Of a stretch of 35,595 bases of DNA, positions 2,801 through 33,780 are shown one piece after another. The notes beneath the pieces were generated by a model, which was not told the DNA's origin, searched no databases, and saw only the letters and a list, made by a program, of their open reading frames with translations. The stretch spans positions 11,183-46,777 of the forward strand of contig CAZMVJ010000001.1 in assembly GCA_964569445.1 (NCBI GenBank), given 5' to 3'. This stretch comes from an uncultured Anaerolineaceae bacterium (GTDB lineage: Bacteria; Chloroflexota; Anaerolineae; Anaerolineales; E44-bin32). Positions within the stretch are counted from its first letter, which is position 1. Every line of letters begins with the position of its first letter. A program made the translations under genes and the position numbers.

Positions 2801-2844
2801 GCCGAAGAACCCCCAGGGAGACCATCCGGGTAAGTTGGGGTCGA

Positions 2845-2872
2845 ATAGTAGACATTCTTCCGCGTTGCGCAA
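2845..2872 (-). promoter_or_regulatory. Sigma70-like promoter for the lipoprotein gene
   Basis: Minus strand TTGCGC, 16-bp spacer, TACTAT; the divergent kinase gene has TATAAT at 2932-2937 on the plus strand. Confidence 0.45.
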
Positions 2873-2976
2873 GTGACGCAAGCGGGTCTGCCGCCGGCTT
2901 TTCCGCCCTTCCCCGTTCCCGCGCAGGCTTCTATAATCACCAGGACCAACACGGTCCGATTTCATCTCAGGCGATC

Positions 2977-10627: not shown

Positions 10628-10667
10628 GGCCCTCTGTTCGAACCAAAAGAGGAGTATGGTCCGCTCC

Positions 10668-10860
10668 ACCCCCTCCCCTAACCCCTCCCCCTGCCAGAGG
10701 CGAGCTCCGCGGTCGATGAAATCCCGCAGGGGGAGGGGAGGGTCTTTTGGGGGGCAGGGGGAGCTCCGCTCCCCCTGCCCCCCGATTCCCCCACCCCCTC
10801 TCCGCCACGATACTTGGCAAAAGGTGAAGTTTCCGGCGGAGAGGGGGAAGGGGGTGAGGT
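10668..10860. repeat. Cluster of C-rich/G-rich palindromic repeats between sdhA and sdhB
   Basis: cccctcccctaacccctcccc...ggggaggggaggg; gggggcagggggagc-tcc-gctccccctgcccccg; cccctctccgcc...ggcggagagggg. Confidence 0.75.
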
Positions 10861-10897
10861 CGAAGCACGCCCCTTTCTTCGTTCCCAGACACTGAGG

Positions 10898-12694: not shown

Positions 12695-12847
12695 GAGCAC
12701 GCGGAATCCTCCCTCGGAGCGCCCGCCTTGGACGATAACCCGCCGGGGTTCGGCCTCCCCAGTGGCACACGTCACGCGGACCGGTGACGGAAGGCGGCCT
12801 TCGAAGGTCGGCCCGGCTCGCCGGGCGCCGTGGTCCCGAGGCGTTGC

Positions 12848-12876
12848 TTGACGCTCGCCGGAGGCGCATGTAGAAT
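12848..12876 (+). promoter_or_regulatory. Near-consensus sigma70 promoter
   Basis: TTGACG, 17-bp spacer, TAGAAT. Confidence 0.75.
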
Positions 12877-12912
12877 CGCGGCATCTTGCCGCCCGAGGAG
12901 ATGGAAGGGATC

Positions 12913-13110
12913 ATGACCGTGCGCCGCGTTATCGTCTGGGGTGCCTCCGCGCTCTTCGGCCTGGTGAGCGCGGCCGGCGTCATCCTGGCGTTTCAAACGA
13001 CGCTGGACAAGTTCTCGACCGTCAACGCCTTCCTGGTTTTCGCCTCGTTCGCCGCCCTGGCCTTTATCTGGCTCGATTGGATTCTTCACACCCAGTACCT
13101 GCGCAGTTGA
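12913..13110 (+). CDS. Small two-TM membrane protein of unknown function
   Basis: Two hydrophobic segments; purine-rich RBS; strong promoter upstream; alternative ATG at 12901. Confidence 0.75.
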   Translation: MTVRRVIVWGASALFGLVSAAGVILAFQTTLDKFSTVNAFLVFASFAALAFIWLDWILHTQYLRS

Positions 13111-13230
13111 CTGGCCGCGTTCGGAGCCTGGCTGCCGCCCCGCGGGGGATGCCGGCCTGGGGGGTCGGCCGCGGGTCACCGCCTTGCGGATCGGCCGCCC
13201 GCCGCGCCGCCATCCGACGGAGATAGTCGC

Positions 13231-14490
13231 ATGCAGCCGAATGGGGACCCGCGCGTCGTCGTTACCGGCTTCGGCTTGATCACCCCGATCGGCACCGGCG
13301 TCGAGGCGTTCTGGGACAGTTTGAAGAACGGCCGCGGCGGAATTCGGCGCATCACGCAGTTCGATCCCACGCCGCTCAGCTCGCAGATCGCCGGCGAGGT
13401 CCCCGAATTCGATCCGGGCCAGTACCTGAGTCGCAAAGACGCCCGTCGCATGTCGCGCGCCAGCCAGTTCGCCGTGGCGGCCGCCCAGCTGGCGGTCCAG
13501 GACGCCGGTCTGACCATCGACGACTCCAACCGGGAAGAGGTCGGGGTGTTGATCGCCAGCGGCGCCAGCTCACCCCCGGAGACCGAGTCGATGGTGCGCG
13601 ATTACGACCGGGGCGGCTACGGCAAGATCAACCCGTTCCACGTCACCGGCTCACTCCCCAATATGCCTTCCTGCCAGGTGGCGATCCATCTCGGGCTGGT
13701 GGGCTACACCAATGCCATCTGCACCGCCTGCGCCGCCGGCTCCCAGGCCATCGGCGAATCGGCCGAGGTCATCCGCCGCGGCGAAGCCCAGGTGATGCTG
13801 GCCGGCGGAACCGAAGGACCGATCGCTGAAACCTGCGTGGCCGGTTTCTGCTCCTTGCGGGCCGTCTCGACCCGCAACGATGATCCGCTGCGCGCCTCTC
13901 GTCCGTTCGACGCCGGCCGCGACGGGTTCATCCTGAGCGAGGGCACCGGTATCGTCGTCCTGGAGAGCCTGGAGCATGCCCGTTCGCGCGGGGCGCGCAT
14001 TTTCGCCGAGCTGGTCGGGTACGGCTCGAGCTGTGACGCCTACCATGTCACCGCTCCGGAGCCCGAGGGGCGCGGCGCCACGCGCGCCATGCGGCGCGCC
14101 TTGAAGCGGTCCGGCGTTTCCCCGGACGAAATCGACTACATCAACGCCCACGCCACCAGCACCGAAGTCGGCGACGTCGCCGAGACGATCGCCATCAAGA
14201 CCGTCTTCGGCGAGCGGGCTTACTCGATCCCGGTCAGCTCGACCAAGTCGATGACCGGGCACATGACCACCGCCGCCGGCGCCGTCGAAGCCGCCGCCGC
14301 TATTCTGGCCATGCACCACGGCCTGATTCCGCCGACGATCAACTATGAGACCCCCGACCCGGCCTGCGACCTGGACTACGTCCCCAACCAGGCGCGCCCG
14401 GCCGAGCTCAAGACCGTGCTGTCGAACTCGTTCGGGTTCGGCGGCATCAACAGCGTGCTGATCTTCCGGCGGCCGGAGGCGGACGGCTAG
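13231..14490 (+). CDS. fabF: Beta-ketoacyl-ACP synthase II
   Basis: RVVVTG, TACAAG (Cys), SRPFD..RDGF, NAHATST, TKSMTGH, SNSFGFGG. Confidence 0.93.
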   Translation: MQPNGDPRVVVTGFGLITPIGTGVEAFWDSLKNGRGGIRRITQFDPTPLSSQIAGEVPEFDPGQYLSRKDARRMSRASQFAVAAAQLAVQDAGLTIDDSNREEVGVLIASGASSPPETESMVRDYDRGGYGKINPFHVTGSLPNMPSCQVAIHLGLVGYTNAICTACAAGSQAIGESAEVIRRGEAQVMLAGGTEGPIAETCVAGFCSLRAVSTRNDDPLRASRPFDAGRDGFILSEGTGIVVLESLEHARSRGARIFAELVGYGSSCDAYHVTAPEPEGRGATRAMRRALKRSGVSPDEIDYINAHATSTEVGDVAETIAIKTVFGERAYSIPVSSTKSMTGHMTTAAGAVEAAAAILAMHHGLIPPTINYETPDPACDLDYVPNQARPAELKTVLSNSFGFGGINSVLIFRRPEADG

Positions 14491-16989: not shown

Positions 16990-17114
16990 GGTCTCCTCGG
17001 CGCGGATTGTACAACACCCGGCGTCCCTGCCCGGCGATTCCGGCCGGCCAAGCCTGATAGCTTTTGGAGGGCTCAGGGCGCTATATCCGCCGGGTCCGAG
17101 ATCTACGCGACGCG

Positions 17115-18428
17115 ATGACCTCCTCCCGCCTACCCGGCTTCTACGACCTTCCTCGCAGCAAGCGATTGGATGCACTGTCCGCGGCCGCCGGCCTGGACGG
17201 GGAGACGGCTGCGGCTCTCTCCGGGTCGGCCGGTCTCGCGGGCGAGCAAGCCGACCATATGATCGAGAACGTCGTCGGCGTCTACGGCCTGCCCTTGGGG
17301 ATCGCCGTCAATTTCGTCGTCAACGGCCGCGAAGTGTTCGTACCGATGGTGATCGAAGAGCCGTCGGTGGTGGCGGGCGCTTCCTTCATGGCCCGGCTGG
17401 CGCGCGAGGGCGGCGGTTTCCAGGCCGAGACGACCGCCCCGGAGATGATCGCCCAGCTTCAAGTGCTGGAAGTGCGCGATCTGGCGGTCGCCCGGGATGC
17501 ACTGCTGGCCGAGAAAGCGGCGATCCTTGCCGAAGCGGACCAGGTCGACCCGGTGCTGCTGCGGCTGGGCGGCGGCGCCCGCGATCTCGAAGTGCACCTC
17601 TTCCCGGAAACGCCCGTCGGACCGATGCTGATCGTGCACCTGATCTACGACACGCGCGACGCCATGGGCGCCAACGCCGCCAATACGGCCGCCGAACGCC
17701 TGGCCCCGCGGGTCGAGGCCATCACCGGCGGGCGGGTGCATTTGCGGATCTTGTCGAACCTGGCAGACCGGCGCCTGGCGCGGGCGACCTGTCGCATCCC
17801 GGCAGCGGCCTTGGCCTTCGGCGATTTCACCGGTGAACGCGTGCGCGACGGAATCGTCGAGGCCTGGGCCTTTGCCGCCGTCGATCCGTACCGCGCCGCC
17901 ACGCACAACAAGGGGATCATGAATGGGGTGGATGCCGTTGTCATCGCCACAGGCAATGACTGGCGGGCGATCGAGGCCGGGGCGCATGCCTACGCCGCCC
18001 GGTCCGGACGATATACCTCCCTCAGCCAGTGGTCGACGGGCGGCGACGGCGCCCTCGAAGGTCGGCTCGAGATGCCGATGGCGGTCGGCACGGTCGGCGG
18101 CGCCACCCGCGTCCACCCGGCTGCGCGAGCCTGCTTGCGTTTGATGGGCGTGGCGTCGGCTCGGGAACTGGCCGAGGTCGTCGTCTCCGTGGGGCTGGCG
18201 CAGAATCTGGCAGCGTTGCGCGCCCTGGCGACCGAAGGCATCCAGCGCGGGCACATGGGACTCCACGCCCGGCAGGTGGCGATCGCCGCCGGAGCCCAGG
18301 GCGACCAAGTCGAGAGGGTAGCCCGTCAATTGGTGATCGAAGGCACCGTCCGCCTTGACCGCGCCGAAGCCATTCTGCACGAGAGGGAGGCCGGAGGCGT
18401 ACCGCCAAAGCCTCAAGGAGCCAGATGA
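17115..18428 (+). CDS. mvaA: Hydroxymethylglutaryl-CoA reductase, class II
   Basis: [41 protein letters not shown]. Confidence 0.95.
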
Positions 18429-19501
18429 ACGCCCCGGGTGCGGACCGACGACTGCTCAAGCCGGCACGCGACGTCGGCATCACCGGCTACGGCGCCTACA
18501 TTCCCCGTTTCCGCCTGCCGGCGAAGGAAGTGGCGCGGGTCTGGAAAGGCGGCCAGGGCGGCCTGCCGGTCAAAGAGAAATCCGTCTCCGGAATCGACGA
18601 GGACGTGATCACCATGTCGATCGAAGCGGCCCGCAACGCGCTGGCGCGCGGTCAGGTCGACCCGTCGATGATCCGAGCCGTCTGGGTCGGATCCGAGTCG
18701 CACCCCTATTCCGTCAAACCGACTTCGACCGTCGTGGCCGAGGCCATCGGCGCAACACCCCACACCCAGGCGGCCGATTGGCAATTCGCCTGCAAGGCCG
18801 GCACCGAGGCGGTCCAGGCGGCGATCGGCTTCGTCGGATCGGGGATGGCCGACTACGCTTTGTCGATCGGTATGGACACCGCCCAGGGTCGGCCGGGCGA
18901 CGCCCTCGAATACACCACCGGCGCCGGCGGCGCGGCGATTCTGCTGGGGCCGGCCGGTGATTCGTTGGCGATCTTCGAGGGATCCTATTCCTACGCCACC
19001 GACACGCCCGATTTCTGGCGGCGAGCCGACGAGAAGTACCCCGAGCATGGGGAACGCTTCACCGGCGAACCGGCGTACTTCAAGCACATTCAAGAGGCCG
19101 GCTCCGCCTTGATGCAGGCGTTAGGACGGGGACCGGAGGATTTCCGCTACGCCGTATTCCACCAGCCGAACACCAAGTTCCCGCAGCGGGCGGCCAAGTC
19201 GCTCGGGTTCAAGCTGGAGCAGATCGAGACCGGCCTGCTGGCGCCGGTCATCGGCAACACCTATGCCGGGTCGGCGCTGGTCGGATTGACAGCGATTCTG
19301 GATGAGGCGGCCCCCGGCGATCGGATTCTGCTGGTCTCGTACGGGTCGGGCGCCGGATCGGATGCCTTCAGCCTGGTGGCGACGGAGCGTTTGCCGCAAC
19401 GGCGCGGACTGGCCCCGTCGACGCGCGAGTACATCGCCCGCCGGACCGAGATCGACTACGCCACCTACGCCCGCTACCGGGGCAAGCTCACGATGTCCTG
19501 A
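18425..19501 (+). CDS. Hydroxymethylglutaryl-CoA synthase, archaeal type
   Basis: [50 protein letters not shown]. Confidence 0.93.
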
Positions 19502-19550
19502 GGGGAGCGAGGCCGCCAGGCCGAGCGAACCGAAGGGACCTGGCCTGACG
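19497..19550. repeat. Repeat overlapping the HMGCS stop codon, paralogous to 20729-20780
   Basis: cctgaggggagcgaggccgccaggccgagcgaaccgaagggacctg vs cctgagcggagcgagaccgcaggccgagccaagccgaaggagcctg. Confidence 0.75.
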
Positions 19551-19563
19551 GAGGCCGTTCGGG

Positions 19564-20733
19564 ATGCACCAATCTGTATTTGTCCTCGGCGTCGGCATGA
19601 CGCCGGTCGCCGAGCACTGGAGTACCTCGCTGCGCGAGCTGGCGCTCGAGGCCATGCGCGCGGCGATGGCCGACGCCGGGGGAGTCCAGCCCCAGGCGCT
19701 CTACGTCGCCAACGCGCTGGCGCCGATCCTCTCGGGACAATCGCATCTGGGCGCGCTGCTGGCCGACTTCGCCGGCCTAGAAGGAATCGAGGCCACGACG
19801 GTCGAAGCCGCCGGTGCCTCGGGCGGCCTGGCCGTCCGCCAGGCCTGCCTGGCGCTCGAGGCGGGCGCGTTCGAAACGGCGATGGTCGTCGGCGTCGAGA
19901 AGGTGACCGACCGAGTCGGCAGCGGATTGGACGCCGCTCTGTCGGCCTGGAGCGACGCCGACTACGAAGCCGTGCACGGCCTGACGGCCACGTCGCAGGC
20001 GGCGCTGGTCATGCGCCGCTACTTGCATGAGCACGGCGCGCCGTCGGACGCGCTGGCCGGGTTCAGCCTGACCGCGCACCGCAACGCCGTCGGCAATGCC
20101 AACGCGATGTTCCGCAGAGCGATTACCCTCGAAGACTACGCGCGGGCGGGCATGGTCAGCGATCCGCTCAACCTGTACGACGCCGCCCCCCTGGCTGACG
20201 GTGCGGCTGCCATTCTGCTCGGCCGTTCGTCCGTCTCCCGCGTCCCGCAGCGGGCGTCTGTCCGAGTCTTGGGAACGGCCAGCGCCACCGCCCGTCTGGC
20301 GATCCACGATCAACCCGACCTGTTGAGCTTGCCGGCGGCCGCCCTCTCGGCCGAGCGCGCCCTGCAGTCGGCCGGCATCACCCGGGACGATATCGACCTG
20401 TTCGAGCTGCACGACTCCTACAGCATCTACGCCGCCCTGGCCCTGGAAGCCGCCGGGTTCGCCGCGCGTGGTCAGGGCTGGCAGATGGCACGCAACGGCA
20501 CGATCGCACTCGAGGGGAAGCTGCCGCTGACGACCTTTGGCGGATCGAAGGCCCGGGGCGAGGCCGGTGGAGCTACCGGGGCCTATCAGGTGGTCGAAGT
20601 CACGCTGCAGCTCCAAGATCGGGCCGGAGCCAGCCAGGTGAGGGGGGCGCGGATCGGGATGGCCCAGTGTCTGGGGGGTGCCGGAGCGACGGCGGCCACG
20701 ACGATTCTGACACAGGCGGAGAGCCTGCCCTGA
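19564..20733 (+). CDS. Thiolase-superfamily protein (archaeal/SCP2-like) with altered catalytic motifs
   Basis: VEAAGASGG, VGVEK, DGAAA, FELHDSY, GGSKARGEAGGATG, MAQCLGG. Confidence 0.88.
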   Translation: MHQSVFVLGVGMTPVAEHWSTSLRELALEAMRAAMADAGGVQPQALYVANALAPILSGQSHLGALLADFAGLEGIEATTVEAAGASGGLAVRQACLALEAGAFETAMVVGVEKVTDRVGSGLDAALSAWSDADYEAVHGLTATSQAALVMRRYLHEHGAPSDALAGFSLTAHRNAVGNANAMFRRAITLEDYARAGMVSDPLNLYDAAPLADGAAAILLGRSSVSRVPQRASVRVLGTASATARLAIHDQPDLLSLPAAALSAERALQSAGITRDDIDLFELHDSYSIYAALALEAAGFAARGQGWQMARNGTIALEGKLPLTTFGGSKARGEAGGATGAYQVVEVTLQLQDRAGASQVRGARIGMAQCLGGAGATAATTILTQAESLP

Positions 20734-20870
20734 GCGGAGCGAGACCGCAGGCCGAGCCAAGCCGAAGGAGCCTGCCCTCCCGTAAGGACGCCGGGACGGT
20801 GTGAGCCCCTCGGCGGAGCTTGTCCTGAGGCGTAGGCCGAAGGGCTCGGGGCGGGCTCTGTCGAAGGGCT
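20729..20870. repeat. Composite repeat between the thiolase and DUF35 genes
   Basis: First part matches 19497-19550; cccctcggcggagcttgtcctgaggcgtaggccgaagggctc matches 23216-23256. Confidence 0.7.
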
Positions 20871-20939
20871 GATAGTTCTTGAGAGTCCCCCCACCCTACA
20901 CTCTGCAACATCCCGGCCCCCAAGCCGGTGAGGTGTCGA

Positions 20940-21341
20940 ATGGAAATCGCCCGGCATTGGAGACTGAGAACCCAACGGTACGCCCTGGTGGGCGAGGTCT
21001 GCCCGCATTGTGAGGTCAAGATCTTCCCGCCGCGCGATGTCTGTCCGGATTGCGGGCAGGAAGCCCGTCAGCCCTACGCCTTCAGCGGCCGCGGCGAGGT
21101 TTATTCGTTTGCGCCCGTAAGGGAGGCGCCCGCCGGCTTCGAGGAAAACGCTCCCTACACGGTGGCGCTGATCCGGCTGGAAGAGGGCCCGATGGTCACG
21201 GCCCAGTTGACCGACCTCGGGGAAGAGCCGCCCCGCATCGGCCTGCCGGTGGAGATGGTCACGCGCAAGCTGCGCTCTGACGGTGAGCGGGGGATGCTGG
21301 TCTACGGTTACAAGTTCCGGCCGAGATTGGTTGCCGCCTAA
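20940..21341 (+). CDS. DUF35 Zn-ribbon/OB-fold protein (thiolase/HMGCS partner)
   Basis: CPHC..FPPRDVCPDC, G.GEVYSF, PYTVALIRLEEG, YGYKFRP; GAGG RBS. Confidence 0.92.
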   Translation: MEIARHWRLRTQRYALVGEVCPHCEVKIFPPRDVCPDCGQEARQPYAFSGRGEVYSFAPVREAPAGFEENAPYTVALIRLEEGPMVTAQLTDLGEEPPRIGLPVEMVTRKLRSDGERGMLVYGYKFRPRLVAA

Positions 21342-23374: not shown

Positions 23375-23725
23375 ATGAGCGACATCAGTAAGGCGGTCGA
23401 AGCCGCCGTCAACCCCCAGATCCCCGAGATTCGGCCCGGTGACACCGTGAGCGTCCACCTGCGGATCAAGGAAGGCGACCGCGAACGGATCCAGGAATTC
23501 CGGGGGACCGTCATCCGCTACCGCAAGGGCGGCAACAACGCCAACTTCACTGTGCGCCGGCTGGCTTCGCATGGGGTCGGCGTGGAACGGACCTTCCTGC
23601 TGCGCTCGCCGCGCATCGAGAAAGTCGAAGTGCAGCGGCAGGCCAAGGTGCGCCGAGCCAAGCTCTACTATCTGCGCGAGCTGGCCGGCAAGCGAGCGCG
23701 GTTGGCAGAGCGCCGCAAAGAGTAG
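23375..23725 (+). CDS. rplS: 50S ribosomal protein L19
   Basis: [44 protein letters not shown]. Confidence 0.97.
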
Positions 23726-23742
23726 CGCGGCGCGCGCCGCGA

Positions 23743-23791
23743 TGGGTGCGCCCGGCGGGCACCCCTTCGGGTGCACCTGGGGTGTGCACCC
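23743..23791. repeat. Palindromic hairpin cluster between rplS and murI
   Basis: gggtgcgcccggcgggcaccc followed by gggtgcacctggggtgtgcaccc. Confidence 0.5.
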
Positions 23792-23807
23792 TCTGTTTTC
23801 GACCGTA

Positions 23808-24635
23808 ATGCCCCTCCTCCCCTCTCGACCCATCGGTGTCTTCGATTCCGGCGTCGGCGGACTTTCGATCTTGCGCGAAATGCGCCGGCAGATGCCGGCC
23901 GAGTCCGCCGTCTACTTCGCCGATCAAGGCCACGTCCCTTATGGGCCCCGTCCGCTGGAGCAGGTCCGTGCCTTCTCGGAGGGCATCACCCGCTTCCTGC
24001 TGGACCAGGGCGCCGATCTGATCGTCGTCGCCTGCAACACGGCCTCGGCCGCGGCGCTGAAGCAGCTGCGCCAGACTTTTCCGGATGTCCTCTTTGTGGG
24101 AATGGAGCCGGCGGTCAAGCCGGCGGCCGAAGTCACCCGCTCGGGGGTCGTCGGTGTACTGGCCACGCCGGCTACATTCCAAGGCGAGCTGTACGCCTCG
24201 GTCGTCGAGCGTTTCGGCCAGGGAGTCCGGTTGGTCAATCAGACGGTCCCCGGCCTGGTCGAACAGATCGAAGCGGGGTATCTGGAGGCGCCGGAGACCG
24301 AGGCCCTGATCCGCCGCGCGCTGGAGCCGATCCTGCGAGCGGGCGCCGACACGATCGTGCTGGCCTGCACCCACTATCCGTTCGTCATCCCGCTGATTTC
24401 ACGACTGGCCGGGCCGGAGGTCACCGTGATCGACCCGTCGCCGGCCATCGCCCGCCAGGCGGCCCGTCTGCGCCAGGCCTCCCCGCCGGGCGATCCGGCG
24501 TCACGCGGCTCCGTCGTTCTTGTCACCAGCGGCGACCCGGCCGGATTGACGCGCCTGTCGCTGCCGCTCCTGGGGGAGCAGGCCGAGGCCCGCCGCGCCG
24601 AGTGGCGGGGCGCGTCGCTCGAGCTGTCTCGATAG
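23808..24635 (+). CDS. murI: Glutamate racemase
   Basis: IGVFDSGVGGLS, PYGPR, VACNTAS, EPAVKPA, LACTHYP. Confidence 0.95.
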   Translation: MPLLPSRPIGVFDSGVGGLSILREMRRQMPAESAVYFADQGHVPYGPRPLEQVRAFSEGITRFLLDQGADLIVVACNTASAAALKQLRQTFPDVLFVGMEPAVKPAAEVTRSGVVGVLATPATFQGELYASVVERFGQGVRLVNQTVPGLVEQIEAGYLEAPETEALIRRALEPILRAGADTIVLACTHYPFVIPLISRLAGPEVTVIDPSPAIARQAARLRQASPPGDPASRGSVVLVTSGDPAGLTRLSLPLLGEQAEARRAEWRGASLELSR

Positions 24636-24643
24636 GCCGCGGC

Positions 24644-25873
24644 TCAGCCGCACCCCTTCCCGGCTGGCCCGCGCTTCAACTCCAGCTTGACCCTCTCGTC
24701 GTACGTGAGTTCGAACTTCTGCGGATCCGGGAAGGACGCCGGGTAGCTTTCGCCCAACGCCGAGGTGAATGCGTAGCGGAGCTCGTCGTCCCCCCCGACG
24801 GCCATCGGCGTGATGCGATCGTCGCCTGCCCCGAACGCCTCCAGCCAAGCGTTGATGCCGCCTTCCACGATGTAGGCGTTCATCACGCTCTCGGCGACCA
24901 TCGTCTTCCAGATCGTCGTGGCCGCCGTTTCGTCGTTCGACATCACCAGGAAGACGGTCGTGGCCGGTTCCAGGCGAAACTCCGGCAGAAGCTCGGGCAG
25001 CGCCTCAGGCGTGATGCGCCGGGCGTCGGCCAGGTGGAACAGGTTGTAGTCCGATTCGGCGCGCACATCGAGCAGCACCAGCGTCAAGTCGTGCTCGTGC
25101 ATGAGGTGCAGCACTTCTCCCGGCTGGATCTGAACCTGTCGTTCGGTGAGGGCCGCCGTCTTGGCCTGGGAGACGGCTGCCCAGCGGTCCTCCGTCGAGG
25201 GCTGGCCGATGGCGAGCACGGCCAGCGCCACAGCGATCATGACGGCGGCGCCGGCAAAACGGGCCTTCGGTTCGATCCGCAAGTTGCGTTTGCCGAAGAC
25301 CTTTTCCAGCAGCTCGGCGCCGGCGAACATCCCCAGCGCCATCAGCACGACCAGCAGGACCACCACACCCGCATCGAGGTGGAAGACGTCCATCAAGGTC
25401 AGCCGGCCGAGGTAGGACGAGTTCCAGAAGATGCTGAAGTTGTCGACGGTCTCACCGAAGAGGAAGATCCCGAAGAACACCCCCAGCACGTAGAACAGGC
25501 CATCGATCTTGAAGGTGCCTAGCGCCACCAGCGACGTCCCCGGGCACAGGCCGCCGACGATGAAGCCCACTCCCATGATCAGGCCGCCGACGATTCCCGG
25601 CCATAGATAGGTCGGGTTGACCCAGATCAGGTTGTAGTCGAGCAAGCCCAGCCCGGTGGCGGCGAAGACCAGCGCCATCGCCACGATGATGCCTCCGAAC
25701 ATGACCTTCAGGACGGTCATGTCGGTCAGGTAGAACTGGCCGGCCAGCTTCGGGGCGTAGCCGAAGCCGGCCATCTCCAGGACGTAACCGAAGGCGAAGC
25801 CGATCAGCAGGTAGACCAGCAGCGCTCCGCTGTGGCCGATCAGTCCGTCGAGGGCGAGCGGGAAGATTCCCAT
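24644..25873 (-). CDS. YeeE/YedE-family membrane protein fused to a Cys-less rhodanese-like domain with a C-terminal GKGCG tail
   Basis: GFAFGYVLE..GF, GGLIMGVGFIVGGLCPGTS; LLDVR..DYNLFHL..A and VEGGINAW rhodanese signatures. Confidence 0.88.
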   Translation of the reverse strand: MGIFPLALDGLIGHSGALLVYLLIGFAFGYVLEMAGFGYAPKLAGQFYLTDMTVLKVMFGGIIVAMALVFAATGLGLLDYNLIWVNPTYLWPGIVGGLIMGVGFIVGGLCPGTSLVALGTFKIDGLFYVLGVFFGIFLFGETVDNFSIFWNSSYLGRLTLMDVFHLDAGVVVLLVVLMALGMFAGAELLEKVFGKRNLRIEPKARFAGAAVMIAVALAVLAIGQPSTEDRWAAVSQAKTAALTERQVQIQPGEVLHLMHEHDLTLVLLDVRAESDYNLFHLADARRITPEALPELLPEFRLEPATTVFLVMSNDETAATTIWKTMVAESVMNAYIVEGGINAWLEAFGAGDDRITPMAVGGDDELRYAFTSALGESYPASFPDPQKFELTYDERVKLELKRGPAGKGCG

Positions 25874-25883
25874 GGCGTCCCTC

Positions 25884-26459
25884 CTAGAGCCACAACCGGC
25901 GAATGAAGTAGGCCAGGCCGTAAGCCGAACCGAAGATGGCGAACATCAGCACCCAGCTGCCTGCCGAGAGGACGGCGCCCCCCGACAGCGCCTGGCCGGA
26001 GGTGCAGCCGCGGGCGAAGCGCGCGCCAAAGCCCATGATCGTTCCCCCGGCGAACGCCATCACCCAGCGAGTGCGGGTCGAGATATGCGGGCCCTTGGCC
26101 GTCTCGAGCTTGAGGCGGCCGTTGCGCCAACCGGAGGCGAAGCCGCCGAGCACCGCGCCGACCGCCACCAGCACGACCCAATCGTCGAGCGGATTGCGGT
26201 CGCCGCCGGCCAGGTTGATCAGGTAGGGCACGCGATCGACGTGCTCGGGGGCCACCAGGTCCTCGACGTAGACGATCATCCGATTGAGCCCGCCCGAGGC
26301 GCCCAACCCGTTGCCGGTGAGGAAGAACGAGGCGAACAGCACCAGGCCCAACAGGGCTCCGGCGAAGTACGGGTGGGTGTAGGGTTTCGCCGGCCGCGAT
26401 TGGAGCCGCTTCCAGAATCCGGGCCGCGGGCCGGGGTGGGCTTGCGTTGTGGCGGTCAT
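25884..26459 (-). CDS. YeeE/YedE-family (half) sulfur-compound transporter
   Basis: PYFAGALLG, LGASG, GAVLGGF, GGTIMGFGARFARGCTSGQALSG. Confidence 0.9.
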   Translation of the reverse strand: MTATTQAHPGPRPGFWKRLQSRPAKPYTHPYFAGALLGLVLFASFFLTGNGLGASGGLNRMIVYVEDLVAPEHVDRVPYLINLAGGDRNPLDDWVVLVAVGAVLGGFASGWRNGRLKLETAKGPHISTRTRWVMAFAGGTIMGFGARFARGCTSGQALSGGAVLSAGSWVLMFAIFGSAYGLAYFIRRLWL

Positions 26460-28456
26460 ACCTCACCTCCAGGTGCAGAAACCGGGGCGGCGTCCACCTC
26501 TTCCCAGCCAAGCATCATCGCTCGCAGACTGGAGACAGGAGTCGCCCCGGTCGTCGTCAGGTAGACGTGCAGCAGGATGAAAGCGGCCAACATCCACGAG
26601 ATCGCAGTGTGGATGGGCGCCAGGGCGCCCAACCCGCCCAGGTTCGCCGTCAGGTCCGGCCAGCGTTGGGCGCCCCACATCAGCACACCGGTGATGACCT
26701 GCAGCGGAAGAAGCACGTTGAGCAGACCCAGGTACGTCATCTGCTGCAAAGGATTCAGCTTGCGCCGTGGGATCTTGGCGAAGGGATGCGGGTCGTGGCG
26801 GAAGATGCCGCGCAGGTAGAACTTCGCCTGCCGCAGGGCCTGATCGAAGAAACCGACGGGCCGCGGCAAGTACTGGCGGATCTCGCCGCTGGCCAGATGG
26901 TAGAAGAGGGCCAGAGCGGCGTTCACGATCAGAAGCGCCGCCAGGATGTTGTGCGCCATCACAACCACGCGGAAGTCGAGGGTGGGGAAAATTACCGGGT
27001 GATGGATGACGATGCCGGTGAACAGGAGTAGCAGGATGGCGATCGTCTGCAGCCAGTGCCAGAGCCGCTCGTAGAAACCGTACATGTAGACCGGATCGGA
27101 GGCTTCGGCAGGCTTGCGGTGACGCAGCCCGAGGGTGAAGCGCATGGTCCCATGGACGGCGATGCCGGCCAGAACCAGCCCGACCAGGGCGACGCCGGCG
27201 GTGTCGATCCCGGTGACCCGGTCGGTTCCGAGGACATAGGCCTGAGGGGAGTCGCCCGGCCGATACAGCCACTCGCCTTGCAGGCCCTGTTCGATCGTCC
27301 CGTTTGGCAGGGCCGCCGTGCCGCCGACGAATTCAGGCGTTGCCCCGCTCGGGGCCGAAGAGGACAGGAGGAACGTCTGGTTCAGCCGGCTGTCGCCGCC
27401 GTGGCATACATCGCATTCCCGAACCGCCCAGTTCTCGGTCGCCACGGCGTGGTGAATGGCGTAGGGTTGGACGTCGCCGACGATGCGCGGTCGTTCGATC
27501 CCTAGCGCCTGCAGCTTGGCGGCGATATAAGACGCTTTCGCCGCCGTGTCGAGGACGACTTCCTGCGGCTGAAGCGACCCGTCGCCGTCGAAGTCGAACC
27601 GGGCGACAATGTCGGCCGCATACGCGCCGCCGTCCAGCCATACCGACTGCAGATCGACCTGGCGGACCGGGCGCGGCGGGTCGCCGTAGACCCAGTACCA
27701 GAACGTGATCAGGTTGTACGGGGCCAGCCGCGTGGTGGCGTCGGACTCGCGCGTATCGAGCCAGATGGGTTGGTACCCGGTGACGAGCGGGAGGGTCTCC
27801 TGCGTGCCGGGCTCGACGCCTCGGCAGGCGAAGATGCCGCGTCCATCCGTCCCCAGAACGGTCCAGTCGAGCTGCCGCATCGCATTCGAATACAGACTGG
27901 GGACATGGCAGGTCTCGCAGGCCAGCGCAGCCACATGGCGCTCCTTGTACGGGAGCCAATCGTGCGTCGCTTCCAGGCTGTGGCACGCCTGACAGCGATC
28001 GGCGCCGGCCGTCGGCGATTCGCCTGCGGCGGCCGTGGCGCTGCTTCTGGCCAGTTCGTGGGACGGCTGATACAGGTATTCACCGGCCTCGAGTCGTCGC
28101 GGGTCGAAGACCAGATTGGCCGGCTGGGCCTCGCCGGACTTCACCGTGTAGACCGGGTCGTTCATGGAGAAGTGGCAGTCGGTGCACTCGACGCGCCGTT
28201 CGGCATGGATGTCCCACGAACGGGTCAGACTGGCCTTGTCCTCCAGATTCATTCCCGAGTCGTCGATCCGTTCCGGCGAGACGATCTGGCCGGTGGTCAC
28301 CGTACGCCGGACCGACGGGTCGCAGCTGGGCGACACCAGGGCTTCCTTGACATCGTCATGAACCAGGCCGTGGCACAGGCCGCAGTTCTCGCTGGCCGGA
28401 TCGCGCACAGCCAGGCTTCCTTCGGCGAGATTGCCTTCGTCGTCGAAGGCGGTCGG
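26456..28456 (-). CDS. Multiheme cytochrome c fused to a cytochrome b/b6-like (Ni-hydrogenase CytB/PhsC-type) domain; apparently 5'-truncated
   Basis: Five CxxCH motifs (CGLCH, CTDCH, CQACH, CETCH, CDVCH); ERLWHW..TG..H, H.I.A, KLNPLQQ, HVYL; the frame stays coding-like upstream of the GTG at 28408 (PTAFDDEGNL) with no RBS or signal peptide. Confidence 0.8.
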   Translation of the reverse strand, partial: PTAFDDEGNLAEGSLAVRDPASENCGLCHGLVHDDVKEALVSPSCDPSVRRTVTTGQIVSPERIDDSGMNLEDKASLTRSWDIHAERRVECTDCHFSMNDPVYTVKSGEAQPANLVFDPRRLEAGEYLYQPSHELARSSATAAAGESPTAGADRCQACHSLEATHDWLPYKERHVAALACETCHVPSLYSNAMRQLDWTVLGTDGRGIFACRGVEPGTQETLPLVTGYQPIWLDTRESDATTRLAPYNLITFWYWVYGDPPRPVRQVDLQSVWLDGGAYAADIVARFDFDGDGSLQPQEVVLDTAAKASYIAAKLQALGIERPRIVGDVQPYAIHHAVATENWAVRECDVCHGGDSRLNQTFLLSSSAPSGATPEFVGGTAALPNGTIEQGLQGEWLYRPGDSPQAYVLGTDRVTGIDTAGVALVGLVLAGIAVHGTMRFTLGLRHRKPAEASDPVYMYGFYERLWHWLQTIAILLLLFTGIVIHHPVIFPTLDFRVVVMAHNILAALLIVNAALALFYHLASGEIRQYLPRPVGFFDQALRQAKFYLRGIFRHDPHPFAKIPRRKLNPLQQMTYLGLLNVLLPLQVITGVLMWGAQRWPDLTANLGGLGALAPIHTAISWMLAAFILLHVYLTTTGATPVSSLRAMMLGWEEVDAAPVSAPGGEV

Positions 28457-28474
28457 GCAGTGTCTGAAGAAACC

Positions 28475-28503
28475 GTAGGGGCGGGTTTGAAACCCGCCCC
28501 TAC
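28475..28503. repeat. GTAG-type REP palindrome
   Basis: gtaggggcgggttt-g-aaacccgcccctac. Confidence 0.88.
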
Positions 28504-28553
28504 CCCAAACGTCTGTTTGTCGGTCTCGCCCAGAGGCCGGCCGAGCTGCAGGG

Positions 28554-31028
28554 TTACTTGGGTTTCTTGCCGCCGTCGTCCGGGGGCGGTTCGATCGACG
28601 GGAATGTGGCCACGCCGGCGACGACGTCGCCTTTCTTGAGGTTGACGACGTGGACGCCCATCGTCGCCCGGCCGGCGCGTTTGATCTGGTCCATCTTCGT
28701 CCGCAGGACGATCCCCCCGGAGGAGATGATCGTCAAGTCCTCGTCGGCGTGGACGACGCGCGCCGCCGCAATCGGCCCGGTGAGACTGAGTTTCTCGCGG
28801 CTGAGAGTCATCACACCCATCGTGCCGCGGCCCTTGGCCGGATACTCTGCCAGCGGCGTGCGTTTGCCGAAACCGTTGCGGGTGACCACCAGCAAGTCGG
28901 CCTTCTTGTCGACCACGTCCATGCCGCTGAGCCGATCGCCCTTCCCCAGCCGGATGGCCCGCACGCCGGCCGCCGGACGCCCCATCGGCCGCACCAGCTT
29001 CTCGTGGAAACGCAGCGCCTGGCCCTTCTCGGTGGCCAGGATCAGATCGTCCTTGCCCGTCGTCAGGCGCACCCAGCCGAGCACGTCCCCTTTTCCGAGC
29101 GAGATGGCGATCAGCCCCGACGGGCGGACGGCGGCGAACTCCGAGAGCGCCACCCGTTTGATCTTGCCGTTGCGCGTGACCATCGTGCAGAAATTGGCGG
29201 CGGCGAAATCCGGCACGGCCACGGCGGCGGTGATCGTCTCGTCTGAGGCCAGCGCCAGCACGCCGGCCAGCAAAACGCCGCGCGCCGTCCGGTCGGCGTC
29301 GGGGATTTGGTAGGCCTTCTCCGAGTAGACCTTGCCGCGGTCCGAGAAGAACAACACCGTGTTCAGCGAGCGCGCCGGGAAGAGCATCACCAGCTCGTCC
29401 TCGCCGCGCGTCGAGTGGCCCGTGACCCCCCGCCCGCCCCGCCCCTGGCGCCGATAACTTTCGGTCGCCACGCGCTTGATGTAGCCGCGCTCGGTCAGGC
29501 TGACCAGCACCGCCTCGTCCGCCACCAGGTCCTCTTCACGTAACTCTTCGTTCGCCTCGGGAGAGATGCGCGTGCGCCGGGCGTCGCCGTACTTCTGGGC
29601 GACGTCGCCCAGGTCGTCGTGGATCAGCCGCAGGATCTTCTTGGGGTGGGCCAGCAGGTCCACCAGATGGGCGATGGTGCCCGTGACCTCTTTGTGTTCA
29701 TCCTCGATCTTCTTGCGCTCGAGCGCCGCCAGACGGCGCAGCTGCATGTCGAGGATCGCCTGAGCCTGCAGGTCGGTCAAGGAGAACTGCTTCATCAGCC
29801 GTTCTTTGGCCACGTCGGCATCCGGCGACCTGCGGATGGTCTGGATCACCTCGTCCAGGTGGCTGAGGGCGATCAGCAGGCCTTCCAGGATGTGAGCCCG
29901 CGCCCGGGCCTTGGCCAGTTCGAATTCCGAGCGGCGGGTGAGCACCACCCGGCGGTGCTCGACGTAGAACTGCAGCGCCCGTTTCAACGAGAGCAGCCGC
30001 GGCTCGCCGTCGACCAGCGCCAACAGCTGGATGCCGAACGACGTCTGCAGCGGCGTGTATTTGAAGAGCTGGTTGAGCACCTTGCGCGGCTGGGCCCCCT
30101 TGCGCAGCTCGACGATCAGGCTCAACCCGCGTCGATCCGACTCATCGCGCAGATCGGCGACGTCATCCAGCCGACCTTCGCGGGCCAGCTCGGCGATGCG
30201 CTCGATCAGCCCGGTCTTGTTGACCTGGTACGGGATTTCGGTGATGACGATGCGGTGCCGCCCGCCCGAGTGCTCCTCGATCTGCGCCTGCGCCCGGACC
30301 ACCAGCCGGCCCTTGCCGGTGGAGTAGGCCTGCTTGATCCCGTCCACGCCGACGATCACCCCGCCCGTCGGGAAGTCCGGCCCGGGCAGGTGCGCCATCA
30401 ATTCGTCGACGGTCACGTCGTCGAACCGGTCGTAGGCGTCGATCAGGTGCCGCAGCGCGTTCGTCAGCTCGCCCAGGTTGTGCGGCGGGATGTTGGTCGC
30501 CATCCCGACGGCGATCCCCGTTGAGCCGTTGAGCAGCAGGTTGGGCAGGCGCGATGGGAGAATCAGCGGTTCCTTGAGCGAACCGTCGAAGTTGTCGCCA
30601 AAATCGACGGTTTCTTTGTCGATGTCGACCAGCAGCTCTTCCGCCATGCGCGCCAGGCGGGCCTCGGTGTAGCGCATCGCCGCCGGCGAGTCGCCGTCGA
30701 TCGAGCCGAAGTTGCCCTGGCCGTCGACCAGCATGTAGCGCATGGCGAAATCCTGCGCCATGCGCGCCATGGCGTCGTAGACCGCCTGGTCTCCGTGAGG
30801 GTGATACTTGCCGAGCACCTCGCCCACGATGCGAGCCGACTTACGGTACGCCCCGTTGGAGCGCATGCCCATATCGTGCATGGCGTACAGGATGCGGCGG
30901 TGGACCGGCTTCAGCCCGTCGCGGGCGTCCGGCAAGGCCCGCGCCACGATGACCGACATGGCATAGTCCAGATACGCCCCGCGCATCTGCTCGTCGATAT
31001 CGACTTGTCGGACCTGACCGATCTCCAT
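28554..31028 (-). CDS. gyrA: DNA gyrase subunit A
   Basis: [36 protein letters not shown], GyrA-box RRQGRGGRG, beta-pinwheel repeats; start MEIGQ with GAGG RBS. Confidence 0.97.
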
Positions 31029-31053
31029 GGACCTCGCCCCACCTGCCGAGCGC

Positions 31054-31081
31054 GTAGGGGCACGGCATGCCGTGCCCCTAC
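31054..31081. repeat. GTAG-type REP, perfect 28-bp palindrome
   Basis: gtaggggcacggca|tgccgtgcccctac. Confidence 0.9.
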
Positions 31082-31113
31082 AACCCACTCGGAAACCAAA
31101 CGAGACTCGCAGC

Positions 31114-31140
31114 TTCCGGGAAGCACCGAGCTTCCCGGAA
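31114..31140. repeat. 11-bp-stem hairpin in the gyrA upstream region
   Basis: ttccgggaagc-accga-gcttcccggaa. Confidence 0.7.
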
Positions 31141-31260
31141 CCTCCATTTTACCTTCCGGGCCTTGTGAAAGCCAGCGCGAGGCCATTGCCCCCGCCTCAT
31201 CTGGGGGATAGACTGGGCCTGTCCCTGTCCATGGCGGGAGCCGCCGCCGGGAGCCAGCCC

Positions 31261-33780
31261 ATGAACCGCTTCGTCACCATCCTGGTCATCATTCTGCTGG
31301 TGGTCCTGATCGCGGTCGGAGGCCTGGCGCTCCTCATCCGGCAGTCCTTCCCGCAGACCTCGGGCGAGGTCAACCTTCCCGGGCTGCACGCCCCGGTCGA
31401 AGTCTTGCGGGACGGGATGGGAATCCCCCACATCTACGCCCAGGATGAACACGACCTGTTCATGGCGCAGGGCTATCTCCACGCCCAGGACCGTTTCTGG
31501 CAGATGGATTTCTGGCGCCACATCGGCGCCGGACGCCTCTCGGAGATGTTCGGGGAAAGCCAGATCGAGACGGACGCCTTCATCCGGACCCTCGGCTGGG
31601 CCCGAATCGCGGATCAAGAGTGGGAGGCGGCTGACGAAGAAACGAAATCCGTCCTGCAGGCCTACGCCGACGGCGTCAACGCCTACCTGGCCGAGCACCA
31701 GGGCGGCCGACTTTCCCTGGAGTACGCCATCCTCAAGCTGACCAACAGGACCTACACGCCGGAAGCCTGGCAGCCCGTCCATTCGCTGACGTGGGCAAAG
31801 GCCATGGCCTGGGATCTGGGCGGCAACATGCAGGCCGAGCTCGAACGGGCCGTGCTCCTGCCCCAACTGGGTGAGGAGCGTCTCGCCGACCTCTACCCCT
31901 CCTATCCGGACGAGAACCCTGTCATCCTGCCGGGATTCAGCCTGGCGGCCTCGCCCCCGCAGGGGCTGGCCTCGTCCGCAGACTACACCGCCGCCGGCGA
32001 CGCGCTGCGTTTTGTTCTGGCCCGCATCGAAGGGCTGAATCGTGTGACCGGCGGCGGCCTGAGCGGACTCGGATCCAACAATTGGGTCGTGGCGGGCTCG
32101 CGCACGAGCAGCGGGATGCCGATCCTGGCCGATGACATGCACCTGGGGATTCGCATGCCGTCGATTTGGTACGAGAACGGGCTGCACTGCGCCCCGATCA
32201 GCGAGACCTGCCGCTTCAATGTCGTCGGGTTCTCTTTCGTCACGCTGCCGGCGGTCGTCGTCGGCCACAACGACCGCATCGCCTGGGGCGTGACCAATGC
32301 CGGGCCGGACGTGCAGGACCTTTACCTGGAACGGATCAATCCGGACAACCCCGACCAGTACGAAGTCGACGGCGAGTGGCAGTCGATGGACGCCCGCGAG
32401 GAGGTGCTCCTCGTCGCCGGTGGGCCCCCGGTGACGATTCGCGTGCGCCAGACGCGCCACGGGCCGGTGCTCTCCGACACCGACGAAGAATTGCAGGCGC
32501 TGGCCGAGGGGGCGGCGCTGGCCGAGGGCACGCCGATGGCCATCAGCCTGCGCTGGACGGCGCTCGAGCCCTCGACCATCCTGCGCGCCGCCCTGGGCGT
32601 CGACCGGGCGCAGAACTTCGACGAATTCCGCGCCGCCCTGCGCGACTGGGACGTGCCGTCGCAGAACTTCGTTTACGCCGACGTCGACGGCAACATCGGC
32701 TACCAGATGCCCGGCGATGTGCCCATCCGCCGCAGCGGGGACGGGTCCTTTCCGGTGGCGGGATGGACCAACCGCGGCGAATGGACAGGCACGATTCCCT
32801 TCGAGGAGCTTCCTACCGCCTACAATCCTCCGGCCGGCTTCATCGTCACGGCCAACAATCGCGCCGTCGACGGCACCTATCCCTACTTGCTGACGACGAT
32901 GCCCGATCTGGGCTTCCGCGCCGCCCGCATCGTCGAGCTGCTCCAGGCCGAGGAGACCCTGACTCCCGAAGCCATGCGCCAGATCCACGGCGACACCTTC
33001 AACGCCGCCGGACCGAGGCTTGTCCCGGTCCTGCTCGATCTCGACTTCAACCGGGCCGGGCAAACCGCCGACGAGGCCGCCCAGGCGACCAGACTGGAGA
33101 CCGTCATTGCCGAGCTGGCGACGTGGGACAACCACAACGACCCCGGCTCGCGCGGCGCGGCGATCTTCAACGCCATTTGGCGCCACGTGATCCTGCGCAC
33201 CTTCGCCGACGACCTCCCGGAAGGCTGGCTGCCCGAAGACGAAGTCGCCTTCGTCGTCGTCGAGAATCTCCTGCAGCGCCCGGGCGACCCCTGGTGGGAC
33301 GATCTGCGCAGCCCGGCGATGGAAACGCGCGACGAGATTCTGCGTTTGGCCACCGCCGACGCCGTCGACGAGCTCGAGGAACGGCTGGGTCCGAACATGT
33401 CCGGCTGGACTTGGGGCGCCCTCCACGGCGCCACTTTCCGCAACGAGACGCTCGGGGAGTCGGGGATTGGGCCGATCGAAGCCCTCTTCAACCGCGGCCC
33501 CTACCCGACCGGCGGCGGGGCTTCGATTGTCGATGCCACCGGGTGGTCCTACGAAGAGGGGTATGAGGTCGCCTGGGTGCCTTCGCAGCGGATGGTGCTC
33601 GACCTGAGCGACTGGGAGCGCGCCCTGGCGATCCACACCACCGGCCAGTCGGGGCATGCCTTCCATCCGCACTATATCGACATGGCCGATCCGTGGGCAC
33701 AGATCGAATACGCCGCGCTCCCCTGGAGCCGAACCGTCGTCGAGAGCCAGACCGAGGAGTGGCTGCGGCTGGTCCCGTAG
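31261..33780 (+). CDS. Penicillin acylase family (peptidase S45, Ntn-hydrolase), N-terminally anchored
   Basis: TM anchor; RDGMGIPHIYA, QGYLHAQDRFWQMD, GSNNW nucleophile, YADVDGNIGY, TANN, GQSGH..PHY.D. Confidence 0.93.
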   Translation: MNRFVTILVIILLVVLIAVGGLALLIRQSFPQTSGEVNLPGLHAPVEVLRDGMGIPHIYAQDEHDLFMAQGYLHAQDRFWQMDFWRHIGAGRLSEMFGESQIETDAFIRTLGWARIADQEWEAADEETKSVLQAYADGVNAYLAEHQGGRLSLEYAILKLTNRTYTPEAWQPVHSLTWAKAMAWDLGGNMQAELERAVLLPQLGEERLADLYPSYPDENPVILPGFSLAASPPQGLASSADYTAAGDALRFVLARIEGLNRVTGGGLSGLGSNNWVVAGSRTSSGMPILADDMHLGIRMPSIWYENGLHCAPISETCRFNVVGFSFVTLPAVVVGHNDRIAWGVTNAGPDVQDLYLERINPDNPDQYEVDGEWQSMDAREEVLLVAGGPPVTIRVRQTRHGPVLSDTDEELQALAEGAALAEGTPMAISLRWTALEPSTILRAALGVDRAQNFDEFRAALRDWDVPSQNFVYADVDGNIGYQMPGDVPIRRSGDGSFPVAGWTNRGEWTGTIPFEELPTAYNPPAGFIVTANNRAVDGTYPYLLTTMPDLGFRAARIVELLQAEETLTPEAMRQIHGDTFNAAGPRLVPVLLDLDFNRAGQTADEAAQATRLETVIAELATWDNHNDPGSRGAAIFNAIWRHVILRTFADDLPEGWLPEDEVAFVVVENLLQRPGDPWWDDLRSPAMETRDEILRLATADAVDELEERLGPNMSGWTWGALHGATFRNETLGESGIGPIEALFNRGPYPTGGGASIVDATGWSYEEGYEVAWVPSQRMVLDLSDWERALAIHTTGQSGHAFHPHYIDMADPWAQIEYAALPWSRTVVESQTEEWLRLVP

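Follow-up and report, generated by a model that had tools for sequence, protein, structure and literature searches.

An Octaheme Reductase Operon with a Split YeeE Channel and a Cysteine-Tipped Rhodanese-Fold Arm, and Its Truncated Copy in an Anaerolineaceae Bacterium

Introduction

The physiological substrate of the octaheme cytochrome OTR has been an open question since 2004. In the portions of the literature consulted, the otr gene is described as adjoining a cytochrome b gene (PMC4911364, PMC6449678), and a mutant study of 2026 excludes tetrathionate as the OTR substrate in Shewanella, where the enzyme of strain ANA-3 is not a tetrathionate reductase in vivo and its role is left open (PMC12949373). 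In an acidobacterium, otr is up-regulated 36-fold with tetrathionate (PMC8528874, consulted in part). For the YeeE family, a heterodimer of the two half-size proteins PmpA and PmpB has been proposed (PMC11582611, in the part consulted). The window analyzed here, a stretch of 35,595 nucleotides of contig CAZMVJ010000001.1 (assembly GCA_964569445.1) from an uncultured Anaerolineaceae bacterium, carries three minus-strand genes that are the tail end of a widespread operon without its front part. The intact module is a new combination of known parts, an OTR, a multiheme cytochrome c/cytochrome b fusion and a split YeeE channel, and one element of it is new, namely the tethered Cys arm carried by a dead rhodanese. 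An otr gene with a split YeeE and a Cys arm was not found described in the literature, of which subscription papers lay mostly outside the search and supplementary tables (e.g. of PMC6449678) could bear on the point. Selenocysteine (Sec) forms of both YeeE and OTR are established in the literature consulted, which also comprised PMC12545173, PMC13188914, PMC13510729, PMC5317091, PMC6896113, PMC10376724, PMC13047784 and PMC13490349.

The Four-Gene Operon and Its Remnant in the Window

In its intact form the unit consists of otr, often preceded by arsR, followed by a cytochrome c7/b fusion gene, the C-terminal half of yeeE, and the N-terminal half of yeeE fused to a rhodanese domain without its catalytic Cys and a GxCG tail. 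The first-pass annotation had taken the three window genes as the whole module; the fourth gene, for OTR, is the catalytic partner and is missing here. A further octaheme gene lies upstream in six of the nine relatives' regions examined (in pieces in one of them), scoring 552-576 bits against TIGR04315 (cut-off 375) and matching the OTR structure 1SP3 with an E-value of 8e-155. The OTR of intact relatives shows eight CxxCH motifs in the matched part in 48 of 52 rows and seven in the other four. Among the GTDB loci, of which the best 80 of at least 599 were examined, all four genes are found together in 53 of the 54 that have at least 5.6 kb of upstream DNA. Within the window's own family (98 genomes), an OTR match below E 1e-20 occurs in 17 genomes, all of which have the YeeE-rhodanese gene, the latter being present in 21 overall. 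The named relatives belong, with few exceptions, to the Anaerolineae or elsewhere in the Chloroflexota.

The features of the window that bear on the module are as follows.

26456..28456, minus strand: multiheme cytochrome c/cytochrome b fusion, 5'-truncated, with hemes 3-7 of 7, an EF-hand-like loop and five membrane helices
27560..27595, minus strand: EF-hand-like loop DFDGDGSLQPQE, from the sequence and from a pattern present in 48 of 59 homologous hits
25884..26459, minus strand: YeeE C-terminal half (PmpA-like), 191 residues, PF04143, with the Cys152 codon at 26004-26006
24644..25873, minus strand: YeeE N-terminal half (PmpB-like) with extra helix, rhodanese domain and Cys tail, 409 residues, with the Cys110 codon at 25544-25546
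24833..25144, minus strand: rhodanese-fold domain, Ser312 in place of the catalytic Cys, with a predicted location outside the membrane, from profile alignment, model and superposition
24644..24676, minus strand: flexible tail KRGPAGKGCG-stop, with Cys408 at 24650-24652, from model confidence and conservation
28456..28457, no strand: likely deletion junction, about 2,352 bp missing relative to the near-identical contigs L046 and L047, from contig comparison
28475..28503, minus strand: repetitive extragenic palindrome (REP)-like element, terminator-like after gyrA, with many copies in the genome and also present upstream of otr in intact alleles
28554..31088, minus strand: gyrA, upstream flank outside the module, from a profile match
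23571..24635 (limits of the open reading frame, ORF), plus strand: glutamate racemase-family gene, convergent downstream flank outside the module, from the ORF list and a profile match

The three minus-strand ORFs (26456-28408, 25884-26459 and 24644-25873) are coupled as had been read from the start, by an ATGA overlap of 4 nt and then a 10-nt gap, GAGGGACGCC. In the truncated fusion gene, the first in-frame start is a GTG at 28408, which gives a protein of 650 residues (26456-28408).

Several observations concern regulation of the operon. An ArsR-family gene precedes otr in 37 loci; it is absent before otr in L046 and L047, whose promoter region (about 1070-1120 and 700-750, respectively), deleted from the window copy, contains a near-consensus Rex-like palindrome and a second palindrome, GTGAC-N4-GTCAC. 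A Rex box as a general feature was rejected, since only 3 of 55 other upstream regions had one at three mismatches, compared with 0-2 in shuffles. In genome G068, ArsR is fused in frame to the rhodanese-GGCG domain (L178:2133-2903), which looks like a deletion remnant of the operon or a misassembly.

Cytochrome c/b Fusion

Of the fusion gene it had been claimed that it encodes at least five CxxCH hemes, a cytochrome b domain and an EF-hand-like loop. The count is exactly five motifs, the cytochrome b domain matches PF01292 (E 8e-21), and the loop DFDGDGSLQPQE is present and, judged by its sequence, is probably a Ca2+ site. The best NCBIfam match is PhsC (NF011582), at 138 bits, which falls under the family cut-off of 204. 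The window protein aligns to residues 250-916 of a 917-residue homologue (56%); it lacks a signal peptide, the N-terminal 250-260 residues or so, and the first two of the seven hemes. Only one solved structure was matched, weakly, and it was OTR itself (E 0.006). The domain order resembles that of CbcL of Geobacter, a quinol oxidase of multiheme c and cytochrome b parts. The fusion is probably the electron feed of OTR rather than the endpoint of the pathway.

Split YeeE Channel

Both YeeE halves exceed the PF04143 cut-off of 27, with 75 and 42 bits, and map to opposite halves of TsuA. As the first-pass annotation had noted, each half keeps a single Cys, in RGCTSG and GLCPGT, respectively. The profile of the 191-residue half aligns to residues 237-326 of TsuA (6LEO), placing Cys152 at TsuA Cys293 on the outer side. 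Residues 17-208 of the 409-residue protein superpose on residues 1-194 of TsuA (8J4C; Z 9.2, root-mean-square deviation (rmsd) 3.2, 174 aligned), so that the N-terminal half corresponds to TsuA helices H1-H7 and Cys110 to Cys91. The 409-residue protein has just two Cys, one (C110) in its YeeE part and the other (C408) at its tip. C110 and C152 are invariant among homologues, the latter across 56 rows. Collectively, sequence, profile and model indicate that the two halves jointly rebuild a TsuA-type channel with the equivalents of Cys91 and Cys293. The TsuA importer profiles NF041049 and NF052577 gave 23-33 bits against cut-offs of 645 and 400, far below membership. A phmmer search of residues 1-210 of the 409-residue protein against solved structures returned nothing, although profile and wide structural searches did match.

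Three apparent natural YeeE fusions (P0185, P0267 and P0182) were rejected, as they look like frameshifted or chimeric records. Four partial YeeE matches were found in a plasmid search. A remoter split YeeE family of related genomes (L013, L014, L015 and L017) has a TGA at the Cys of CPGT, a probable Sec.

Dead Rhodanese and Cys-Tipped Tail

The rhodanese fold of the C-terminal domain is supported by PF00581 (34 bits, cut-off 22) and by superposition on GlpE (1GN0; Z 11.8, rmsd 2.5, 105 aligned). Foldseek on the 409-residue model likewise gave rhodanese rows only, none reaching E 0.001. In the profile alignment to solved rhodaneses, the catalytic Cys position is occupied by S312 in LVMSND, and a Cys in this loop occurs in none of the 121 close homologues and in only 2 of 96 distant homologues. 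The domain is thus not an active rhodanese, in line with the original reading of a Cys-less domain.

That reading had also placed KRGPAGKGCG before the stop, and the protein does end KRGPAGKGCG-TGA. The terminal Cys is strongly conserved. The ending GCG is found in 120 of 121 close sequences (query included), most homologues having GGCG. A deep search yielded 151 sequences, of which the 96 of 370-460 residues were scored; 90 of these have a Cys within the last three residues. In the GTDB set, 76 of 80 end in GC(G), and the four exceptions can be explained. L127 ends in GCGS, L125 and L132 are records with a frameshift or gap that show GGCG when read in a different frame, and L113 reads GGG-TGA-G-stop, the only tail TGA among the 80. 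The genome of L113 has SelA, and on the strength of this gene and of the codon position the TGA is probably Sec, which would fit a reactive Sec or Cys at the tip. No notable structure, such as a selenocysteine insertion sequence, was seen after this TGA (z -1.4). The window bears no selenoprotein sign, all Cys codons being TGC, though its source genome has SelA. In L200 (genome G192), a YeeE N-half of about 242 residues ends PGG-TGA-G, possibly a Sec-tipped arm without a rhodanese domain.

The 409-residue model has a predicted local distance difference test (pLDDT) value of 91, falling under 50 at residues 404-409, and the tail is Gly-rich, unstructured and basic. The loop between TsuA helices H7 and H8 is cytoplasmic (PMC7449682, in the part consulted), and the Lys/Arg value is 4.8-5.5 in the loop before the extra helix, compared with 0.1-1.2 in the outer loops; therefore, the extra helix (204-222) should return the chain to the outside. 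The rhodanese domain and tail are predicted to lie outside the membrane, on the same side as the hemes and the Cys293 equivalent, and a tail on the opposite side, which would have spoken against sulfur transfer, is not what is predicted. L176 agrees with the outside location: its Cys-less rhodanese, which has a KAEGC tail, is encoded as a protein of its own whose N-terminus is lipobox-like. Sequence, profile and model together portray the rhodanese fold, which has lost its own catalytic Cys, as a spacer carrying a tail that is flexible, basic and tipped with a Cys.

Exchange of Enzyme Partners and of Scaffolds

The channel-arm pair is not confined to OTR. In a sample of 301 Acidobacteriota genomes, the gene was present in 20, with 23 matches; 19 loci were examined, one being already included and three short ones being left out. 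Of the 19, six adjoin otr and cytochrome, 12 adjoin a PhsA/PsrA-like enzyme (partial in one case), and one has neither next to it. The five PhsA/PsrA-like enzymes scanned gave 449-520 bits, under the PhsA cut-off of 694. A Cys is among the last three residues in 14 of the 19; of the remainder, one is interrupted by a contig end and four stop short of the rhodanese domain. Two gammaproteobacterial homologues also lie within Psr/Phs-like operons. In these sister operons, the YeeE-arm protein is paired with PhsA/PsrA-like, FeS and NrfD-like subunits. In none of 200 bootstrap trees of the membrane domain (45 rows) did the OTR-linked rows fall into a single group, and the starred branches force at least three label changes, with four long branches leaving details unsure. 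The earlier statement that the module matches neither Phs nor Ttr does not survive, given OTR in the intact loci and Psr/Phs-like enzymes beside the channel-arm pair elsewhere.

The arm, in turn, is found on other scaffolds near otr. Twenty gammaproteobacterial otr loci were examined from 34 matches, and six of them adjoin an exported protein ending in Gly-Cys: four DUF302 proteins, one monoheme cytochrome c and one SoxY. The cytochrome c locus also has YeeE and rhodanese; in it, otr and cytochrome b are followed by a monoheme cytochrome c with the ending PAGCS, then by a YeeE of full length and by a triple rhodanese (L158:8582-11466). The SoxY locus (L173), in which a true SoxYZ adjoins otr, also has SoxZ. 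The four DUF302 proteins (L156:5352-5897, L160:9227-9811, L161:5665-6207 and L163:9115-9657) are membrane-anchored, have Pro/Gly-rich tails ending GC or GGC, lie directly 5' of otr, and are candidates for a further sulfur-carrier family.

State of the Window Copy

Homology to intact relatives begins at 28456, 18 nt after the REP palindrome that follows gyrA. Contigs with 93-97% DNA identity to the window also carry the four genes. The near-identical contigs L045-L047 have the four-gene order, and L047 reads gyrA-REP-otr-cytochrome-yeeE-yeeE-racemase in the same setting as the window. By comparison, about 2,352 bp are absent from the window between the palindrome and 28456, a stretch with the promoter, otr and the 5' part of the cytochrome fusion gene. 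We consider it likely that this deletion is real and recent. The alternative, that the organism itself retains the intact operon and the gap of 2.35 kb arose as an artefact of assembly, appears unlikely, though several observations favor it. In a metagenome scan of 31 loci, the five close ones (82-97% DNA identity) are all intact across the site, continuing the cytochrome upstream of 28456, and four reach otr. When contigs of four runs were compared with the window, one contig each of X5 and X6 left it at 28456 and continued for a further 344 and 423 nt. Of 887 pieces, 32 were inspected, and none of these bridges 28456-28476. The remnant has no stops and shows more synonymous than non-synonymous changes relative to L044, L045 and L047, as if selection had not relaxed. 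Against an artefact, the join lies 18 nt past the repeat with a microhomology of at most a base or two, unlike a repeat-induced misjoin, and a contig of X1 ends exactly at 28456, as would be expected with both alleles present. No otr was found elsewhere in the source genome (assembly 89% complete). Furthermore, in a sister species (G003, L027:7175-7753) the last gene is reduced to residues 224-409 and lies about 20 nt beyond the gyrA stop, which is an independent, larger loss at the same site, and in two other sister species gyrA directly adjoins the racemase gene with nothing between.

With the promoter, otr and the cytochrome export signal deleted and a terminator-like hairpin upstream, the electron branch has probably lost its function in this copy. 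Only the channel-arm pair might remain active, provided that transcripts extend beyond the REP hairpin that follows gyrA; no sigma-70-like promoter was seen in window 24300-28800. No Psr/Phs-like partner was found in the source genome either, the best match (184 bits, with one TGA) probably being a formate dehydrogenase. The window copy is thus probably not a functional redox module. Being decayed, it is a poor start for experiments, for which L047 offers a near-identical intact form.

The rest of the window holds features separate from the module. The palindrome at 28475-28503 is of GTAG-type REP-like form, with dozens of copies in the genome, some paired. At 17064-21341, HMG-CoA reductase, HMG-CoA synthase-like, thiolase and ChsH2/DUF35-type genes stand in tandem, an archaeal-style upper mevalonate pathway cluster within a bacterium. 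An ORF of 1395 residues at 2698-6885 combines protein kinase, nucleotide cyclase, AAA ATPase and TPR domains. At 9860-13529 lie A and B genes of the succinate dehydrogenase/fumarate reductase type, and at 31027-33780 a penicillin amidase-family gene divergent from gyrA.

Proposed Mechanism and Alternative Roles of the Arm

The catalytic-looking parts of the intact unit all appear, by sequence, profile and model, to face the outside of the cytoplasmic membrane. The linkage of the channel-arm pair with a respiratory enzyme of disputed function suggests that the enzyme works on sulfur held by the arm. In the proposed scheme, menaquinol would be oxidized by the cytochrome b domain, and electrons would pass through the seven c hemes to OTR, which would reductively cleave an S-S bond in the sulfur that the tail Cys carries as a persulfide, polysulfide or S-thiosulfonate. 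This reductive role is likened to that of Psr/Phs in the sister operons, for which OTR and its cytochrome would be a heme-only stand-in for PsrABC, and the tail might also load or unload the outer Cys of the channel. That OTR draws on quinol to reduce the sulfane sulfur borne by the arm seems to us an evenly balanced proposition. The first-pass annotation had proposed a sulfur-redox module in which the terminal Cys shuttles sulfur between channel and multiheme wire. Its conserved tail Cys, the co-occurrence of the genes and the outer location hold; the wire as endpoint has to be given up, and the shuttling is something that we infer. A broader proposal is put forward tentatively, at somewhat less than even confidence: the Gly-Cys arm, on interchangeable exported scaffolds, would be the physiological substrate holder of OTR, and OTR with its b/c feed a molybdenum-free sulfane-sulfur reductase replacing PsrABC ahead of the same channel-arm module.

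A number of points weigh against these proposals. OTR needs no such arm, as 14 of the 20 gammaproteobacterial otr loci have no neighbor with a Gly-Cys tail within 2.5 kb, and the enrichment of such tails near otr is modest at the ORF level (6/181, compared with 5/499 distant ORFs). OTR is present in 28 of 401 gammaproteobacterial genomes, of which four have this YeeE gene, and the gene lies beside otr in a single gammaproteobacterial genome that was itself chosen for having it. The YeeE pair occurs alone, with neither otr nor cytochrome, in L119, L138 and L184. In all occurrence counts, kin are not independent. In the part of PMC12949373 consulted, free nitrite, hydroxylamine and tetrathionate are named as substrates of purified OTRs, and a role as sulfite reductase is proposed. 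A complex prediction for OTR (L047 residues 44-474) and the rhodanese-tail domain (224-409) scored 0.23 against a mark of 0.32 and weighs neither way.

Some of these points favor a different role, in which the arm serves the channel only, capturing thiosulfate, sulfane sulfur or selenium on the outer face for uptake or sensing, the reductases being merely co-regulated, e.g. by ArsR, and acting on free substrates. The three loci with the YeeE pair and no reductase, the armless otr loci, the ArsR-family gene in 37 loci and the activity of OTR on free anions all fit, as do the SoxT1B-type signaling roles of YeeE proteins (PMC11582611, in the part consulted). Yet Gly-Cys arms stand beside otr on DUF302 and SoxY scaffolds in loci where no YeeE match was seen, and no TusA/YeeD-like cluster, which would be expected of an assimilatory importer, is among the recurrent neighbors of YeeE-arm loci. 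YeeD/TsuB was not seen among these neighbors either. On balance, a channel-only arm seems rather unlikely.

The flow might also run in the opposite direction, with sulfide or thiosulfate oxidized at OTR onto the arm in a Sox-like manner, electrons going to the quinone pool and sulfane sulfur through the channel to the cytoplasm. The tail is like that of SoxY, and SoxYZ lies beside otr in L173, as soxY-S3 does in lucinid symbionts (PMC11237559); OTRs have weak thiosulfate-oxidizing activity (PMC12949373), and YeeE proteins import sulfur for oxidation (PMC11582611), all in the parts consulted. However, the Psr/Phs-like alternative partner belongs to a family of known reductases. Moreover, most carriers belong to the Anaerolineae, which are largely anaerobic heterotrophs, and we regard the oxidative direction as improbable. 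Least of all do we expect the tail Cys to carry no sulfur and to act instead as a thiol-disulfide, metal-binding or heme-ligating group in the maturation or protection of the reductase or channel, because, although a single exposed Cys or Sec could fill any of these roles, the outer domain has no second conserved Cys and the Gly-rich, unstructured, basic tail recurs on several unrelated scaffolds, always in sulfur contexts.

If arm-held sulfur is indeed the substrate of OTR, the module would represent an unrecognized route of sulfur respiration in Anaerolineae and other sediment bacteria and a second swinging-arm family of sulfur carriers, independent of SoxY. It would also explain the sluggishness of OTR on free tetrathionate, and genomes called 'tetrathionate reducers' or 'nitrite reducers' through otr would need to be read again.

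Comparison with Known Systems

Compared with OTR of Shewanella oneidensis (1SP3) and its adjacent cytochrome b, the operon OTR has an N-terminal membrane anchor, and the cytochrome b is fused to a seven-heme domain and followed by a split YeeE with a Cys arm. TsuA is a single chain of 330-350 residues with three Cys, whereas the window has two genes and two channel Cys. The two-half arrangement is that proposed for PmpAB (PMC11582611, in the part consulted). The window channel has no Cys22 equivalent, and its N half keeps helix H7, absent from PmpAB, and adds a helix, the dead rhodanese and the Cys arm. The arm resembles the Gly-Gly-Cys-Gly C-terminal arm of SoxY (PF13501), likewise outside the membrane, and reads GKGCG here; however, it is carried on a rhodanese scaffold tethered to the channel and lacks the SoxY fold. 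The window protein has no PF13501 match, and SoxZ is not among the recurrent neighbors, so the arm is an analogue of SoxY and not a homologue. A further parallel is PsrABC/PhsABC with the periplasmic rhodanese Sud of Wolinella (1QXN, which is among the fold and profile matches of the rhodanese domain), also a quinol-linked sulfur reductase of the outer face served by a carrier of rhodanese fold. Sud works through its active-site Cys, whereas the module has a Ser at that position and bears its thiol on the tail instead, and, unlike PsrABC/PhsABC, the OTR version has no molybdenum enzyme.

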